Below, piece by piece: positions 21,690 to 57,704 of a stretch of 64,000 nucleotides of DNA. A program made the translations under genes and the position numbers. The notes under the pieces were generated by a model that saw only the letters and a program-made list of their open reading frames with translations, did not search any database and was not told the origin of the DNA. This DNA is from Tricharina praecox. Lineage: Eukaryota. The stretch is taken from NCBI RefSeq assembly GCF_024521635.1, contig NW_026250412.1:62001-126000 (forward strand), read 5' to 3'. The first letter of the stretch is position 1. Each line of letters begins with the position of its first letter.

Positions 21690-22454
21690 ATGCCGGTCAC
21701 CACCGCGGACCAAGGCGCCGAGGAGCCATCCAGGAAGAGCGTCAACCAGATGAGCCCCAGCAGGCACCACACTCTGCTGGCTTTGCCTCCGTCGCCTTTC
21801 TCCACCCCAGTCAAGAAGAGCGTCAACCAGGCCGGCCCAAGCAGCAGCAGCGACAGATACCTTCCGCCTCTTCCCCTCTCGCCTGATTCAGAGTCCTCGA
21901 AGAAGAGCATCAACCAGACGAGCCCAAGCAGCCACCACACTCTTCCGGCGCTGCCGCCCTCGCCCTTCCTCCCTTCCGAGGATTCCACCGCAGTCGAAGG
22001 CGCCTCTGAGCCCGGCACCGGCACGGAGAGCACGTACCAGGGCAGCTCGAGCCGCTACAACCCGATCCCGATGCTGCGGTCCCTTCAGGCGGTCCCCCGC
22101 GGAAACCCCAAGGACCCCAACTTCAATTCTATCTTCGAATTCCGCTATAAGTGTGATCACCACACCCTGGAGTTCTACAAAGCCCCGTTGAACCTCCGCT
22201 ACTACACCCACCAGTTGTGCCCCGACTGCGAACGCAAGCGCCTCGACCACAGCCCGGTTCACAAGATCCTTACGGCGATTTTCGGCACTTGGTGGACTGG
22301 ACCTGAACCCAAGAATCAGAAGCCGCTCGCTCACGGTCGCGGTAATAAGGGTAAGGGCAAGGACAACAACGAGACGCAGGGCAGTGGTCAAGGAAACAAC
22401 GGCGGCGAGGACAGAACGGGTGGTGGAACTCTCAACTGGGCCCGCGGAGCTTAA
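21690..22454 (+). CDS. Hypothetical protein (254 aa): three imperfect ~28-aa Pro/Ser repeats plus YKCDH-x19-CPDC putative Zn-binding domain (family member A)
   Basis: Open frame 21498..22454 with first ATG at 21690. Repeats KS[VI]NQ..PS...LP.LP.SP. The motif is shared with 53342-53608. Confidence 0.75.
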   Translation: MPVTTADQGAEEPSRKSVNQMSPSRHHTLLALPPSPFSTPVKKSVNQAGPSSSSDRYLPPLPLSPDSESSKKSINQTSPSSHHTLPALPPSPFLPSEDSTAVEGASEPGTGTESTYQGSSSRYNPIPMLRSLQAVPRGNPKDPNFNSIFEFRYKCDHHTLEFYKAPLNLRYYTHQLCPDCERKRLDHSPVHKILTAIFGTWWTGPEPKNQKPLAHGRGNKGKGKDNNETQGSGQGNNGGEDRTGGGTLNWARGA

Positions 22455-42151: not shown

Positions 42152-43693
42152 ATGAAGCTACATTCGTTCATCTCACTCCTTGCCGTGGCACAGGCAGCCT
42201 CCGCAATCTCTCTCAACGTCGACGATAAGCAATCGATCAAGGAAGCTGCGGCTACAGCGGCAAAGAAGCTGGCCGCACTCTACCCGCGGAACGAAACCTG
42301 GTTCATTCCCGGCGACTTTGGTGTGATCCAAACAGCGGATGGGCGCAATGATAAGGGATACTATTGGTGGGAAGGCGGTGCAGCGATGGGGGTGCGCGTG
42401 GCTTCTCTCCCCGAGTCCTCCGCCACTCCGCTAATCAACATCACCAGGCATGGATCGATTACTGGGCGATAACCGGCGACGATAGCTACAACTCCATCGT
42501 CACCGAAGGCATCCTTCACCAGGTGGGCGAAAATAACGACTTTCAGCCCGCGAACCAAACGCTGGGCATCGCCAACGACGACCAAGCAACCTGGGCAATT
42601 GCCGCCCTTTCCGCAGCAGAACGCGGGTTCCCGGATCCTCCCGCCGACAAACCGCAATGGATCACTCTCGCAAAGACCGTGTTCGATCGCCAGGCGGCAC
42701 GGTGGGACGAGGGCAACTGCAGTGGTGGCCTCAGGTGGCTGGTGTTCAACTCGAGCGAAGGATACGATTACAAGAACTCAGCTGCGAACGGACTATTCTT
42801 CCAGCTGGCGGCGAGACTGGCCCGGTACACCGGGAATGAAACGTATGTGGAGTGGAGCGAGAAGGCCTACAACTGGGCTAGGGCGGTCAAGCTCATCGGC
42901 CCCGAGTACGAAGTTTACGATGGCCTGCATGATAGTGACGACATGTGCGGTGATCCGTCTAAAGTTCGGTGGACTCACACAGCCGGAGCCTATATAGCCG
43001 GCGCCGCAAATCTCTACGACTACTATGTTTGTCCCTCCTCTTCCCTGCCTCACTCCTCCTGACTAATACCCACCCCAGTCCTCGGCCAACGACACCTCCC
43101 AGACGACAAAATGGCAACTCGAAACCAGCTCCCTCCTCAACGCGACGGACGAGGCGTTCTTCAATCAAAACGACGGCACCGACAACATCATGCGGGAGTC
43201 CGCGTGTGAGTCACCGGCGCCCTTCACGCGCTCCCCCACCTGCAACACCGACCAGCGCTTCTTCAAAGCATTGATGTCGCGCTTCCTCGGCGCAACCTAC
43301 CAGCTCGCACCTTTCACGCGCGACTACATCACCGAGCGGCTGCGGGCCTCGGCTCTCGGCGCTGCAAGGTCGTGCACTGGAAAACCCGGAGGAGACACCT
43401 GCGGACTCAGCTGGATCATCGGGGAGTACGATGACTCTCCGTATGGAATTGCGGAGGGTGGTGTCAGCGAACACATGGCGGCCCTCGAGGTCTTCCAGAA
43501 CTTGCTGGTGGGAGATGTTGACGCGCCAAAGACGCAAGAGTCGGAGTCTGCTAGTGCTGCTGGAAAATCAACCACTGTTGAGGATGGCGGGGCGAAGCCG
43601 ACGAGTGTGGGGGCGAGGGCTGTGGGTGCGGGAGCGCTTGTGCCTGCGGTGGCGTTTGCAGGCATTGTGAGCTTAGCTTTGGTGCTAGTTTAG
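42152..43693 (+). CDS. GH76 mannan endo-1,6-alpha-mannosidase, Dfg5/Dcw1-like, GPI-anchored; exons 42152-42391, 42448-43026, 43079-43693
   Basis: Signal peptide, YYWWEGGA, catalytic NDD (GIANDDQ), C.GGLRW, YKNS..NG.FFQLAARLARYTGN, VYDG, CNTDQ.FFK and a hydrophobic C-terminal GPI signal. Both introns are GT-AG with CTAAT branch sites. Confidence 0.93.
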
Positions 43694-51528: not shown

Positions 51529-53341
51529 GGCTATTTATTTGCGAGTCGATAATACTGATCCGTAGCTCCCAAGAACCGGAGAAATATGGCGATTTTTATA
51601 TTACGGAGCGAATCCTCAGATGTCAAGAGGACCGGTCGCGCTATACATAGCATAGTCTCGTTTGTTCTTCGTAGTAGATAATAGATATCCGCCGGTCAAG
51701 CGAATGCATCAAACGACGCGCAAGGCTAACCGTCGTCACACGTGTATCCGGGCCCCTGGTGATTGGACCGGTGCTGCAGCCGTGTGGCTGTGCAGTCGTC
51801 CCACGGCTTCATCGGGAGACCCATTGCACCGTCTGCAGGGCCTGTTCGATTATTCAACAGTGGAGAACGCCTCGCATATGCACCGCCCCACCGCTCGACA
51901 CCATGCGTCTGGGAGGACTGGTCGAACCGGCAGCCGACGGTGGCGTTACGGCCGGGCGATCGTGCCATCCAGTAGCGAGACACGGACGGTTGGCGCGATA
52001 TAAGCTGTCTTCGTATCGTTTACTCACATGGGATACCGATGGTGTATCACGTCTCGTCCGCAGCTGTGATCTTCAGCGTAGCGTGACTTGTCCAGGAGTG
52101 CAGGGACCATGTACCCGGAAACGAAAATTAGTAGTGTCGCTTTAGGGTCGCGACCAGCATGGTAGTTACTCATATATAACTGCCCACTAGACGAAAATCC
52201 TCTGCTCCTAACCATGATCAGCGTACCGGGTATAGGCCATTCCCCAGGGATCCGCTGAAATCCCTACAACGGCTATAATAACGGCTCTGCTGCGGATTTG
52301 ATGGATTCCGAAACGAGCCGGAGCGATGGCAAACTCATGCCAACAGCTACCCAGTCAAGACTGATCGGCGGTTTCGTGGAGCAGCCGGGAGACGCAGTTC
52401 AACTTGCGCAGCAGGGCGTTCTCCGTCATGATCCTGCCACTTACATACCTCTTATGTGGCATGCTAATGAGGAGGAGGAGCCATGAGGTCCAAACCAAGG
52501 AATTTCATCGAGCATCGGTTTGACCACCTCGGATTCCCTATTCGATGAGGCTGTGGGAAACCTCCCTTCCGGTGGTGCTATGACGATTTTGTGGAGCAGC
52601 AGGAAGCCGGATACCCGTCATATACTCTGAAGATGGCACTTTCACGACCATCCCGCCTCGCCTACGCACTATACCGAGGTAATTTCCCCTCCGAAACGCA
52701 CAGGACGACGGATGAGCATTCGATCTTTATGCCAACCCTGAAGGCTAGAAAGCGGATGTGAGTTTTGGATTCAGAGTTCAAACTGTGGGGAACCGAGAAA
52801 CGGATGATTACACGACGACGAGCTGGACTAATAAGCGAGACTACAAGCCGTCGTGGCGGTTGAGTTTAGGTTATTTTGGATGGCACCAATGGCACTAGAG
52901 GAGACTATCCGCGCTTTCCGGATGATCTACGGGGCTATTTTAGACGAGCGGACCTTCGACATCACTGGAGTGAATGGCTGCATTTTGATGAACTACAGCT
53001 TTCTCTCGCTGTGATCCAGTAGTGAAGATATCTGCATTGAAGAGCGCGACTTGAATCCAACCAACTACCAAATACATATCTGGGACCTTGAAGACAGAAT
53101 CTGGGTGTGTATTGGCAGGGGGAAATCGGCACATGTGCCTCCGGTTATATCCTGGGAGTAGACATCCCTAGATTCCCTACACAGCCCATCGATCCATTCT
53201 AGCCATCCATTGCGGCGTATGAATTGGAGGACCATCCGAATATATAGCCTTTTCCACATGGAAAGCGCCTTCCACATGAACAGCCTCTTCCATCATCCCA
53301 CCGGTTTCCCTCCAACTCATCGCAGGTTCTCACCCGCTTGC

Positions 53342-53608
53342 CTACCACGCGCCAGTCCCATCCCGCACCTCTTTGCCGCCGGTATCCACAAGATTCCACA
53401 GGCGGGACGCAAGAAGCAGCGACTTCAGGCGCTCCATCCACCACTCCCTCGACCACGCAGACGGATGTTCGATCCTGCAGTTTGGGCAGCGCTGGTGCGT
53501 GTAATAGCGCTCGCTAAGCGGGAGGAGACAGAACGAGGCGGTGTAGTGATCGCATTTGTATAGGAGGCCCGCGGCGGAATTCGCAGTTTGGAGCGTGTTT
53601 TTTGACAT
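53342..53608 (-). CDS. Small protein (88 aa) with YKCDH-x19-CPNC motif and Trp-rich tail (family member B)
   Basis: ATG 53608. 18 of 28 residues are identical to the motif region of 21690-22454. A further 3' exon cannot be excluded. Confidence 0.65.
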   Translation of the reverse strand: MSKNTLQTANSAAGLLYKCDHYTASFCLLPLSERYYTHQRCPNCRIEHPSAWSREWWMERLKSLLLASRLWNLVDTGGKEVRDGTGAW

Positions 53609-54601
53609 ATAAACTGGTAGCCGTGGTAAGCGGGGGAGGGGTGGGGGAGAGCATGGTGGGGTGCTGAGGGGGGTTATGTGTCCAAGGGGGTGGGTCGAGT
53701 TGAACTGATGAAGGAGCTGGGCTATAAACGCTGGACGGCGGGTGAGGTTGCAAGAACGGCTGGGAGAGATCGGGAATACCGGTAGGCTGTAACCCACAGA
53801 GGTGGAAATGTTATTTACTTTTTCTTGTCACTGCTGCATTCCACCCCTACATACCGTAGCTGACAGTAGCTGCCGGTATACCTAGCGAGTATCGCTACCC
53901 TAATAGTACCAACCAAAGCAACCCTTCAAGAATCAAGATGCCGCACTACACCGTAAACTTCACAAAGAATCACTCGCTAGTGAGGGACCTTGCGTGCAGC
54001 CCTCGGCAAAAGTGCTCGACTATGTCTATGCCCTGTACGTTGAAGTAGGAAAGCTTTCGATAACTCACCTCCAGTACGCCGGCAGGGAGGCATGGAATGA
54101 AACACGCACCAGCGTATCCGTCGGTTTGGCAGTTGGACACGCTGATATCATAGACTTGAAGTAGACGGACGTTTCGTTTCCCGAAGGACCGCATGGAATT
54201 TCGCGACTGTTCCTGCAGGGAAGAAGCAGGAACGCTCGGAGATATGGGCGTCACCCATGGGGCTTTTGAGGACGTTAAGGTTATCTAACCTACGTTCGCG
54301 CCCGGGTTTGGGCTATTGTTGCTGTCTTCGGGGAATGGTCCGAAGTTTAAGTTCACGATTGCGTTGAAGGGCAGCTATTCCGCGGAGGAGGCTCCCGTGG
54401 CTATAGTTGCGTGAAGGGCTATTCTCTCTTTCTGCTTGCTTGCTCGAAGGAATCGCATCACATCGTGTCGCAATTTCATCTTGCTATGGTACTCTTTACA
54501 GTACAGCTGCCAACAGCACCAGAAACGTCAAAACGCCCTTTTATGAGCCACTCTATGTGCGAAATGATCACGGCTAGATGGTACCCCCACACACATGGTG
54601 C

Positions 54602-55037
54602 TCAAAACCAGCCCGAAGCTTCCACCTCCCCTTCCATACTAGCCGGCTGCTTGCGCATCCGGTACCTGATCGGCGAGCGGCTGTGGAGCCGGTTGTACCT
54701 CTTCCACGCCCAGGCCTGCAGCCTCACCCACCGCGAGGCTTGGCTGAGGATGAAGCAGTGGATGCACGGGTGCTCGATGCGGTTGCGAATGTCGTCGGCG
54801 GGTGAGTCGGCTTCGCGGGTGCAGCCGCAGCTGTACTTGACGGCTATATAATTTTAGCGGTTAAGTACTCGGCGATAGGAAGTAGGGGGTCTTACTGGGC
54901 GTGGAATGGTAAGTAGAGCCCTGGAAGGACATAGTTCTTAGGTGTACGGTTGAGCGCTCCATTTCCACTTTTGATGTTGTCAGTGCTAACCGGAGTCGGG
55001 GGCGTTCGGCGAGGTGGGGATCCGTTGGATCCGTCAT
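54602..55037 (-). CDS. Small protein (127 aa) with YSCGC-x18-CIHC motif and Trp/Arg-rich tail (family member C); exons 55037-54896, 54843-54602
   Basis: Not in the ORF track. ATG in CAAAATG context; the intron GTAAGA...GCTAAA...TAG joins in frame; exon 2 has a strong C/G third-position bias. Confidence 0.7.
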
Positions 55038-55234
55038 TTTGAGGTGATGGCGCGAAGTTTGTTGTATGTTGTATGTTGAGGTGTGGGTGTGTCTTGCAGT
55101 AGGGGGAGGATAAAGGAAAGTTCAAGATGACCGACGTTCTTTGAATGTGCTGTCCAAATGTGACGCCGGTTCGCCCTAATACCAACCAACCACCGAACCC
55201 GTGCGAAGATACTCGACACGGGTACAACACACAC

Positions 55235-55594
55235 CTACCGATCGGCATCCTTTCCACCCTCAGTCTCCACCACGACTCCGATTTCACCCTTCTTCCATCC
55301 CAGCTTCCACTTCGCCGACCGCCACTTGACAAACGCCCAAGCACCCAGCAGAGTCCTGCTCTTGACACAGTACCTACACGGACGCCGCCGCAGAGCTGGC
55401 AGGTCAACTCCGGAGGACTCGACGATCACTGTGCGGCAGTGTCCACAGCCGTAAACGACGTTCAGCTGGATGGTGCCATCGGAGTGCATAATCGACATTG
55501 TCAGCGGCGCGGGATCGCACGGATCGAGCCGGCGGAAGGAGGGTCCAGGTGTGAAACGCTTGAGCGGTATCAGCGGATGAAGGGAACAATCCAT
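55235..55594 (-). CDS. Small protein (119 aa, or 87 aa from ATG 55498) with YGCGH-x20-CRYC motif and Trp/Lys-rich tail (family member D)
   Basis: Open frame 55235..55621 with the same motif architecture and strand as its neighbours. Confidence 0.55.
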   Translation of the reverse strand: MDCSLHPLIPLKRFTPGPSFRRLDPCDPAPLTMSIMHSDGTIQLNVVYGCGHCRTVIVESSGVDLPALRRRPCRYCVKSRTLLGAWAFVKWRSAKWKLGWKKGEIGVVVETEGGKDADR

Positions 55595-56203
55595 CGGAGA
55601 CGACGAGACACCGCTCTCCACCCCTCGATATACCCCGCACCTGAATTGAGTTAAAATTCACCTCTATCGACGATAGAATCAGCACTAAAGATAAGATCAT
55701 GATAACCGTGTTTCCGCAGCTACCGAGCAATAGAGATCCGGAGCGGGCTGCGGGCCTGACAACGGCACACTTCCACCTCGCTGCGTGCGGTCTTTGCCAT
55801 GAGTGTCGCCGAGCGCGGATGAGATGAATATGTCCAGTCACCTATCAGGCGCGAGGCTCAAGCCTTCCTTCCCTGCACGCTCATCACCCCCCTTTACGGC
55901 GGTGCATCTTGATTCTCGAATCGTAAGAAATAAGCGGGTGTGCAGGATACGCGCTTAGCGACTGGTTGATGGAGCTGCCGCTTCGCAATACCTATAGCCC
56001 TCCGAACTGCACTAACTAAATCGCATTCCTGGCATACAGAGTCGAAGATGGTTATTACGAGTGTATTTTACCTATCGAAGAAATACCTTTAAATGGGTGA
56101 TATATCACCGCAGATAGTTATGGAGGAAATGAAAGATCAAGATTTGAGACAACCTATCCATGAGCAGAAGGAGATTCTCGAGGCACATAGCGTAAGAGTT
56201 AGA

Positions 56204-56284
56204 CTTAGGCGAAGTGTTAGGCGAAGTGTTAGACGAAGTGTTAGGCGAAGAGCTGGGCGAAGAGCTGCGTGAAGAGTTGCTAGG
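56204..56284. repeat. 12-bp imperfect tandem repeat (TTAGGCGAAGTG-like) x~6
   Basis: Direct reading. Confidence 0.75.
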
Positions 56285-56912
56285 GGCATATAACTATGTG
56301 TACCAATCGGTGATTGGGATGCTGGATGGAGTAGCTAGCTGGGTACACAATATATCTATGAACTCTCAAGCATATAAAAGGTATACCACCGTGTAGCTTC
56401 TCCTGTTACTCTGTTTTCCCTGTTCTGACCTATCGGCGGCGGAGATGCTTTGCAAAGGCCGTGGTGCTCTGGAGTACGCGGCAGAGAGGTGCCGGTTGCA
56501 CGGCTCATGCTGATACCATTCCAGAGATTCTTCTTCTTCGGGCCGGTCATCTCGCCCCAAAGGAGGGTCTTCCTTCTTTCATCTCGGAGAGACGGATAAG
56601 AAAACAACCTCCCTCACCCCGAGAATTCCCGTAAGTTGACTGAAGGACGGGCTCACGGAGCTACGGACTCGTGGTGCTAATCGTATCAGATTCCCACACT
56701 CCCCAGGCTTCAAAGGGATTCCCGTGATGCAGTGTTGTACATAGACCAGTCCAGACCATTTTTTGGTATAGTTGGGACTGGTCGGGATATATCCAGACCG
56801 ACCAACCATAGGTCGGGATAAATCTGGCTAAGAAACGTTTATTTGCCAGGCACGTTCATTACACAGCCAGGAGTAATTAGTAGAAACAACTCTTCAGTAT
56901 AGACTATCACTA

Positions 56913-57704
56913 CTAGTACACGAAATCCTCCTCACAAAGAACAGCCAACATCTGCTCAATTATTTCAACATCCTCCTCCGCCAGCTTCTCTGGCCCTCCT
57001 CCGCCGTAGTCGGAGTTGTTACCGGCATCGCTACCACAGTGAAAGGTAACGTCTCCCTCGTCTTCCTCGGTCTCCTTTCGGTCTAGTTTTCGATCGAACG
57101 AATTTGCTCCTCGGTCAGAAGCGTCTCCTCCGGGTCTCCTCCGGGTCGGAATCCTCACCCACGTAGCCGCGACAAGACCAAAGTCTTCCCAGCGCACGGG
57201 GTAGAGCATCTGCTCTATTTCGTCCGACCATTTGTGCCCGAGTATCGCGACCACAGGGTACTCTCCCACGTCGTCCGAACCGCTCCCATCGGACATGGTC
57301 TCGACTGAGTCGTTATCGGAGACGGCTGCCATCAGCGGCACACTGGGATTTCGAAGTAGTCCATATCGGAAATGGAGCGCATTAAAAACGTATTCGAGGC
57401 CATCGCGATCGTCGTCAAGCACCACTACTGACGGACCTCCACGTCCCGTGATCCATGACTGCCATAGATCGATCCTTTCTTGGTAGGAAGAATCGGGGCC
57501 GAACATGCAATTGAAGACTCGCGAGGCCGCCCAGAGAACCGATGAGGATACCAGAAAACGAACATTGAACGGGGGTACGGAGCCATCAGGAGATCGATAA
57601 TCGTCCGGAACCGTAGTCTCGATGAATAAGTCTCCACCGCTGACGACGGCGGCGTTGTCGTCATCGTTGTCGGCATCATCGTTGTCGGCAATGGTTGGGT
57701 TCAT
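56913..57704 (-). CDS. BTB/POZ-like domain protein with acidic C-terminus (263 aa; possibly an internally deleted derivative)
   Basis: GDL.I...RFLVSS.VL..ASRVF..MF...S.YQE...V.LDDD..GL..VFNALHFR is the fungal BTB signature. The domain appears cut just before the expected (C/A)DKY helix. Confidence 0.65.
   Translation of the reverse strand: MNPTIADNDDADNDDDNAAVVSGGDLFIETTVPDDYRSPDGSVPPFNVRFLVSSSVLWAASRVFNCMFGPDSSYQERIDLWQSWITGRGGPSVVVLDDDRDGLEYVFNALHFRYGLLRNPSVPLMAAVSDNDSVETMSDGSGSDDVGEYPVVAILGHKWSDEIEQMLYPVRWEDFGLVAATWVRIPTRRRPGGDASDRGANSFDRKLDRKETEEDEGDVTFHCGSDAGNNSDYGGGGPEKLAEEDVEIIEQMLAVLCEEDFVY

Follow-up and report, generated by a model that had tools for sequence, protein, structure and literature searches.

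A 64,000-nucleotide stretch of the Tricharina praecox genome (contig NW_026250412.1, positions 62,001 to 126,000 of the forward strand; hereafter the window) contains three small genes arranged in tandem, g3, g2, and g1, all located on the minus strand. The array is a real, conserved gene cluster. The encoded proteins (119, about 127, and 88 amino acids, respectively) carry a Cys/His motif and, downstream of it, a segment rich in Trp and basic residues. Together with an unlinked paralogue of g1, designated g4, they very probably form a real and conserved gene family. The genes are regarded as real and conserved because a second fungus carries a matching array. The features are as follows (window coordinates):

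21690–22454, plus strand: g4, the unlinked g1 paralogue; YKCDH-x19-CPDC at 22146–22229, behind three Ser/Pro-rich repeats.
53342–53608, minus strand: g1, 88 amino acids; YKCDH-x19-CPNC at 53477–53560, followed by the AWSREWW... tail.
54602–54843, minus strand: g2 exon 2; YSCGC-x18-CIHC at 54755–54835, followed by the RWVRLQAWAWKRYNR tail; stop codon at 54602–54604.
54844–54895, minus strand: g2 intron, 52 nt, GTAAGA...CGCTAAA...TATAG.
54896–55037, minus strand: g2 exon 1, ATG plus 47 codons and one base.
55080–55150, minus strand: conserved block of about 70 nt located 5' of the g2 ATG; probably a promoter or 5' untranslated region (UTR) element.
55235–55594, minus strand: g3, 119 amino acids; YGCGH-x20-CRYC at 55367–55453, followed by the GAWAFVKWRSAKWKLGWKK tail.

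The three minus-strand open reading frames (ORFs), with the coordinates, motifs, and tails quoted for them in an earlier note on this DNA, are all present in the sequence. The Trp/basic stretch was described there as following the motif directly, but it starts 6–8 residues past the CxxC. When the window was searched in six frames with the strict pattern Y.C[GD][HC].{17,21}C..C, four stop-free matches were obtained, the fourth being that of g4 at 22146–22229 on the plus strand, and three of the four are located within 2.3 kb of one another on one strand. In 100 shuffled versions of the window (mononucleotide shuffles within 1-kb blocks, not codon-aware), both the mean and the maximum number of matches were 0. 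A relaxed pattern gave two extra matches, both lacking Trp and containing stops in the tail. With the relatives described below added, the motif loosens to [YF]-x-C-x-[HC]-x18-20-C-x-x-C. With a family hidden Markov model (HMM) built from seven sequences, no additional copy was found when 1500 stop-to-stop ORFs, taken from the window and from contig L001 of the second fungus, were scanned (best non-member, E 0.085).

The second fungus was found by a metagenome scan with the g1 and g4 alignment, which retrieved three nearly identical contigs of another organism (L001, L002, and L003). Each contains three family genes on one strand, in the order g2 orthologue, g1 orthologue, and a 174-amino-acid g3-like gene. 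In L001, region 1976–2215 shares 76.5% DNA identity and 52% protein identity with g2 exon 2, and the g2 orthologue reads YSCGC-x18-CVNC, followed by WRVRLRTWTWKKYNR. The g1 orthologue (2953–3222, 89 amino acids) contains YECDH-x19-CPDC and SREWW and is 46% identical to g1. The 174-amino-acid gene encodes FACRH-x20-CAAC and RLGAWERLRRWRKGTTWKGVWYKK (LGAW..WR..WK..W.KK); it resembles g3 (BLASTP E 0.004, 28% identity) and is the only relative of g3 found. The spacing specific to each subtype, i.e. x18 in g2, x19 in g1, and x20 in g3, is kept between the two fungi. No g3 relative was present in L001 1371–1667, upstream of the g2 orthologue.

The similarity between the two loci is concentrated in the coding cores: blastn aligned just 54639–54837 (76.5%) and 53438–53579 (73%) of the window with L001, and the intergenic DNA gave no alignment by tblastx or blastn except for the block of about 70 nt upstream of the g2 start. 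Among the contigs of the second fungus themselves, L001 diverges from L003 at 4 of 1173 coding nucleotides and at 38 of 4914 other nucleotides; one of the four coding differences alters a residue, as judged by comparison of the ORF translations. The cluster had been described as old and diverging, and this description is borne out by the conserved order of g2 and g1 and the presence of a g3-like gene in the second fungus, at protein identities of 46–52% and 28%, respectively, with intergenic DNA that is otherwise unalignable.

A 70-amino-acid ORF rich in Trp, Lys, and Arg (53065–53277, minus strand) lies just downstream of g1, where L001 carries its third family gene. Its tblastx match (33% over 24 amino acids with an internal stop, 25 bits) is not significant, and the ORF may be a relic or a chance occurrence.

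The ratios of nonsynonymous to synonymous substitution (dN/dS) were determined by our own Nei–Gojobori counts with Fisher p values; Biopython NG86 values were similar. Between the window and L001, dN/dS was 0.18 for the g1 core (p 5e-5), 0.25 for g1 residues 1–59 (p 7e-5), and 0.56 for g2 exon 2 (p 0.04), and the comparison of g1 with g4 gave 0.24 (p 0.003). These substitution patterns indicate that g1 and g2 exon 2 are under purifying selection. The earlier characterization of the genes as hypervariable was therefore overstated, at dN/dS values of 0.18–0.56. The G+C content at third codon positions (GC3) was 0.74 in g1, 0.86 in g2 exon 2, 0.68 in g3, and 0.77 in g4; the annotated window genes for a PFF1 protease and a DUF6601 protein have values of 0.75 and 0.81, respectively, and the bulk GC content of the window is approximately 0.50–0.59.

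Synonymous divergence in the g2 core (codons 1–52, 54686–54841) is unusually low, with a dS of 0.33 versus 1.26–1.32 in g1. Possible sources are constraint at the nucleotide level through strong codon bias (GC3 0.86) or an antisense feature, or gene conversion.

By sequence statistics, g1 is connected with g4 (BLASTP E 8e-13, 52% over 42 residues) and the genes of the window with their respective L001 counterparts. A common origin of the three types is argued from shared features: a ligand pattern with near-constant spacing, an aromatic residue separated from the first Cys by one residue, a Trp/basic segment at equal distance, and a tandem arrangement on one strand in both species. On this basis, the three types probably arose by tandem duplication followed by fast divergence. 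Comparisons between subtypes gave no significant support for such a relationship. BLASTP gave no alignment between g1 and g3 at E ≤ 100, a 5-residue word only between g1 and g2, and an E value of 0.04 between g2 and g3. With hhalign, the g1 type matched the g2 type at E 0.38 and the g3 type at E 0.054, and g2 matched g3 at E 0.038. The best cross-subtype HMM match among the 1500 ORFs had an E value of 0.031, linking g2 and g3 weakly, and the g1-type HMM placed the L001 g2 orthologue 16th, with an E value of 3.3. The g1 results in particular favour the alternative that the g1/g4 and g2/g3 types are unrelated small Cys-rich genes sharing a short ligand pattern by chance. We regard this alternative as unlikely, since a pattern that never appeared in the shuffled window has three of its four matches clustered on one strand, and L001–L003 again hold all three types side by side on one strand. 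Furthermore, all seven distinct members (four in the window and three in L001) possess the aromatic residue, the C, the [HC], and the CxxC, with the 18–20 spacing typical of their subtype and with Trp at a similar distance in a Trp/basic segment that begins 6–8 residues past the CxxC.

The g1 paralogue g4 is the sole family member present in the public protein collection (P0010, 300 amino acids, NCBI/UniRef); this entry begins 46 residues upstream of the first ATG of g4, without a Met. Of the 20 residues identical between g1 and g4, 8 are specified by different codons. The N-terminal half of g4 (21690–22100) consists of three Ser/Pro-rich repeats of approximately 28–30 amino acids each (KKS[VI]NQ..PS..HHTL.ALPPSPF), which are lacking in g1, g2, and g3. 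When residues 130–215 of g4 were compared with the protein collection ('near' length range, in which fused or split forms would escape notice), only its own 300-amino-acid entry was matched.

Two exons are required to give g2 a start codon: exon 2 is preceded immediately by an in-frame stop and has no ATG of its own, and the interval 54844–54895 (GT..AG, 52 nt) connects the ATG-bearing exon 54896–55037 in frame with it. The equivalent interval in L001 is a 56-nt GT..AG segment (1918–1973). Exon 2 is stop-closed upstream in both species, and the reading frame from the upstream ATG is restored by both intervals. The donor (GTAAGA and GTGATA), the CGCTAAA branch-like site, and the acceptor occupy shared alignment columns, and the exon 1 peptides bear a weak resemblance to each other, with 17 identities among 39 residues that could be aligned globally. 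The proposal of an intron at 54844–54895 thus gains support from the interspecies conservation of its position, signals, and frame, but the corresponding splice was not seen: no RNA contig crossed the junction in either spliced or unspliced form. The block 5' of the g2 start (55080–55150) aligns with L001 at approximately 1660–1735 and lies inside transcribed DNA (X1 54944–55415 and X2 55041–55337; see below). It probably belongs to a promoter or to a 5' UTR.

Transcription was assessed with two runs, X1 and X2, which are listed as guessed RNA. They were read as cDNA because both include a contig carrying a 63-nt GT..AG joint (52784 to 52848). Coverage was patchy, with no contig from either run over 53706–54375 and 55850–56500. 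Contigs were present over all three genes; uncovered stretches and the unseen g2 junction carry no weight in either direction. Two metatranscriptomes, X3 and X4, gave no contigs here. The depth over g1 was 37.6 in X1 (52500–53566) and 23.1 in X2 (53232–53622). The X2 contig comprises the g1 coding region, approximately 110 nt downstream, and 14 nt upstream, and would fit an independent short g1 mRNA, the contigs being strandless. The only difference in X2 is C>T at 53364, which replaces Arg82 by Gln in the poorly conserved C-terminus of g1 (codon read by hand).

A spliced plus-strand RNA, convergent with g1, also exists in this region, because the joint 52784 to 52848 is GT..AG on the plus strand. 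It was seen in both X1 and X2 (window 52500–53566, intron 52785–52847, 63 nt), and no long ORF was found in the spliced read. This RNA may be non-coding, as an antisense or convergent transcript, or it may represent the terminal part of a gene that begins to the left of 52500. In X2, the plus-strand splice is carried by a contig of its own, with a depth of 4.2, distinct from the contig of depth 23.

Several of these observations count against the interpretation as a conserved gene array. The GC3 of g2 exon 1 is only 0.57, and BLASTP gave no alignment between g2 exon 1 and L001 exon 1, so that the coding signal of this exon is weak. The X2 contig 54673–54867 extends 24 nt into the g2 intron without splicing, the contigs over g2 and g3 reach depths of only 2–6, and one contig connects the 3' end of g3 with exon 1 of g2. 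In X1, the coverage of g1 is continuous with the plus-strand spliced RNA, and relatives of the array were found in only one other organism. Taken to the extreme, the ORFs would be decaying or non-functional relics, with the RNA over g1 deriving from the convergent plus-strand transcript and the coverage of g2 and g3 representing background. The unbroken X1 contig from the plus-strand intron to 53566, the low depth over g2 and g3 with no visible g2 splice, and the absence of g1 and g3 from the public protein collection would all suit this view. It is nevertheless very unlikely, in light of the frames that are intact in two species and under purifying selection and of the conserved 5' region and intron signals of g2. 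Moreover, the depth of 23.1 for the X2 contig 53232–53622, against 4.2 for the plus-strand spliced contig, fits a separate short g1 RNA, and the spliced plus-strand read lacks a long ORF. A conserved array of genuine genes remains our preferred interpretation.

In searches of Pfam (2025 copy), no match above the cut-off was obtained for any of the seven members, in agreement with the earlier description of the family as apparently unnamed. In the protein collection, g1 and g3 had no match ('near' length range, word-index search). Exact copies of g1, of g3, and of the plain g4 ORF are lacking in the collection, which does contain three neighbouring genes from this 1.2-Mb contig. With phmmer, g3 had no match among 1.84 billion representative proteins, and g3 alone had none among the sequences of solved structures; the family profile gave no significant match to the latter set (best E 0.035, an inositol kinase). 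In the ESM Atlas, the best values were 0.81 for g3 and 0.86 for g1, under the 0.9 lead level, and the nearest named clusters for g1 were small zinc-binding proteins at 0.84–0.85, which can be taken as a lead only. None of the 28 pattern matches in a scan of viral contigs was confirmed. The only match in prokaryote genomes obtained with the g2 alignment (L004 2001–2189) was dismissed as chance, as it lies in an antisense frame of a 429-amino-acid bacterial ORF with a stop right after the motif. In the literature, no paper on such a family was found, which is weak evidence that it is unpublished, as sequence motifs are poorly searchable as text.

Below the threshold, the g1 type matched the Pfam models Cas12f1-like TNB, RING C3HC4, and Zn_ribbon_8 and one treble-clef model, in every case over the two ligand pairs. 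The zinc ribbon models were matched by the g1 type only, with best scores of 16.8 bits (cut-off 26.3), 14.8 bits (24), and 12.6 bits (34.4), so that the gathering score was not reached. The matches to zinc-ribbon and treble-clef models cover the ligand region (residues 17–56 of the g1-type protein P0001 and 17–48 of the L001 orthologue), and g2, g3, and g4 had no match to the Zn_ribbon_8, TNB, or zf_Tbcl models. Zn_ribbon_8 (PF09723), zf_Tbcl (PF13451), and Cas12f1-like TNB (PF07282) resemble the family in possessing two metal-ligand pairs approximately 20 residues apart, the second being CPxC or CxxC. In a zinc ribbon, two CxxC knuckles are located on beta-hairpins and hold one zinc ion, whereas in the present family the second pair is CxxC in all seven members but the first is C-x-[HC], with the ligands one residue apart. 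The family further differs from zinc-ribbon and treble-clef domains in the conserved Trp/basic segment that follows, the fold of the family being predicted from the motif.

RING C3HC4 (PF00097) has a likeness of a different kind: the family has C-x-H and then a distal C-x-x-C, an order that recalls the latter half of a RING (P0001, E 0.029, profile positions 13–40). Identity as a RING finger was rejected, since the seven members have four conserved ligands rather than eight and hence no cross-brace, the score is 14.7 bits against a cut-off of 21, and g2 and g3 do not match. A thioredoxin or protein disulphide isomerase (PDI)-type redox site, suggested by the CGHC of g3, was likewise rejected; the only g3 relative has CRHS at this site, and no thioredoxin Pfam hit was found at E ≤ 10. 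A further likeness is to zinc-ribbon ribosomal proteins (eL43/L37ae, eL37, and eS26), which are also small and basic and have one Cys4-type zinc site beside an Arg/Lys-rich RNA-binding segment. Ribosomal zinc-ribbon matches of the family profile among the solved structures had E values of 0.32–5.3, which are not significant and reflect composition only, and to our knowledge these ribosomal proteins are not Trp-rich.

We propose that g3, g2, g1, g4, and the array of the second fungus represent a lineage-restricted family for which Pfam has no model. The core [YF]-x-C-x-[HC]-x18-20-C-x-x-C would fold as a two-knuckle, zinc-ribbon-like site holding one zinc ion (Cys/His or Cys plus Cys-Cys). Judged from the ligand pattern, one zinc site per protein appears fairly likely. 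Structure prediction by AlphaFold2 tells against relying on any site geometry, because the alignments are shallow and the mean predicted local distance difference test (pLDDT) values (47.9 for g1 and 52.7 for g2 exon 2) make the models unusable for this purpose. In both of these low-confidence models, the Trp/basic segment is placed in a helix; the g1 model (pLDDT 47.9) contains a hairpin of residues 15–26 around C19/H21, with C19/H21 at the turn.

The resulting small intracellular, zinc-stabilized mini-domain would present an aromatic and basic surface to a polyanion, for which RNA or DNA would be likelier than acidic membrane lipid. Nucleic-acid binding is put forward tentatively and is in our view somewhat doubtful. 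An intracellular mode of action is preferred because no signal peptide or transmembrane feature was seen by eye; these features, including hydrophobic segments, were judged by eye only, with no predictor used. The explanation as a whole, i.e. a conserved array of zinc-knuckle-like proteins with a polyanion partner, is favoured with little better than even confidence. Zinc binding, the fold, common ancestry, and the ligand are here inferred properties.

The tails, taken as 36 residues, contain 2–5 Trp (3–5 in six of the seven and 2 in g4) and have net charges of +1 to +12. They had been suggested to be amphipathic, but this was not supported: in the seven tails, the helical hydrophobic moment was matched or exceeded by 12–97% of shuffles. 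The result bears on another reading, in which the proteins are fast-evolving, clustered effectors of a conflict within the genome or between individuals (killer/antidote, allorecognition, or antimicrobial) whose Trp/Arg/Lys segment acts on membranes. The tandem arrangement of diverged paralogues, with 28–52% identity between species, and the richness of the tails in Trp and Arg/Lys are compatible with such a role, and the tail composition is similar to that of cationic Trp-rich membrane-active peptides of the PAF26 type (PMC6566136). However, PAF26-type peptides are short and secreted or synthetic, whereas the segment of the present family lies within a protein of 88–127 amino acids, behind a Cys/His motif, with no signal peptide visible by eye and no amphipathicity beyond that of shuffles. 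In addition, dN/dS was below 1 wherever it was measured, with no positive selection seen (no site test), the g2-to-g1 order is stable between species, and the neighbourhood showed no partner gene assignable to any known conflict family. We consider an effector role acting on membranes improbable and retain the intracellular, polyanion-binding proposal. A part in recognition or defence, as suggested earlier, is speculative.

The public protein collection lacks at least two of the three array genes (g1 and g3) despite purifying selection, and these genes thus exemplify conserved small genes missed by fungal annotation. The family combines an unusual first ligand pair (C-x-H or C-x-C) with a conserved Trp/basic segment and has no Pfam model, and a profile of it could retrieve additional members from other fungi. 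If the zinc site and a ligand were shown, the proteins would represent a compact small binding module, and their size of 88–127 amino acids should ease expression and metal analysis. The novelty is modest: the family is a variant among small zinc-motif proteins, known from two organisms. Fungal genomes commonly contain lineage-specific families of small genes whose function is unknown, and the present data give no sign yet of a surprising mechanism. It is conceivable, but highly improbable, that g2, g1, and g3 constitute a conserved but fast-diverging and largely unannotated module of filamentous fungi in which zinc-knuckle/Trp-basic microproteins act together, as a killer/antidote or allorecognition system or as an RNA-binding complex for a developmental switch; if true, fungal microprotein systems would gain a new class.

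Relics of BTB genes had been suspected beside the array. No support for them was obtained with Pfam, either for 56913–57704 at E ≤ 10 or for 22 other ORFs of the 40–64 kb region at E ≤ 0.1; degenerate relics may lie below the sensitivity of HMM searches. The former region (minus strand) corresponds to an annotated neighbour (P0009, 263 amino acids, in NCBI/UniRef) that has no Pfam match at E ≤ 10. Farther away, at 42355–43693 on the plus strand, two ORFs lie side by side, one matching the first half (E 3e-77) and the other the second half (E 4e-31) of glycosyl hydrolase family 76; they presumably represent one gene interrupted by an intron or by a change of frame.

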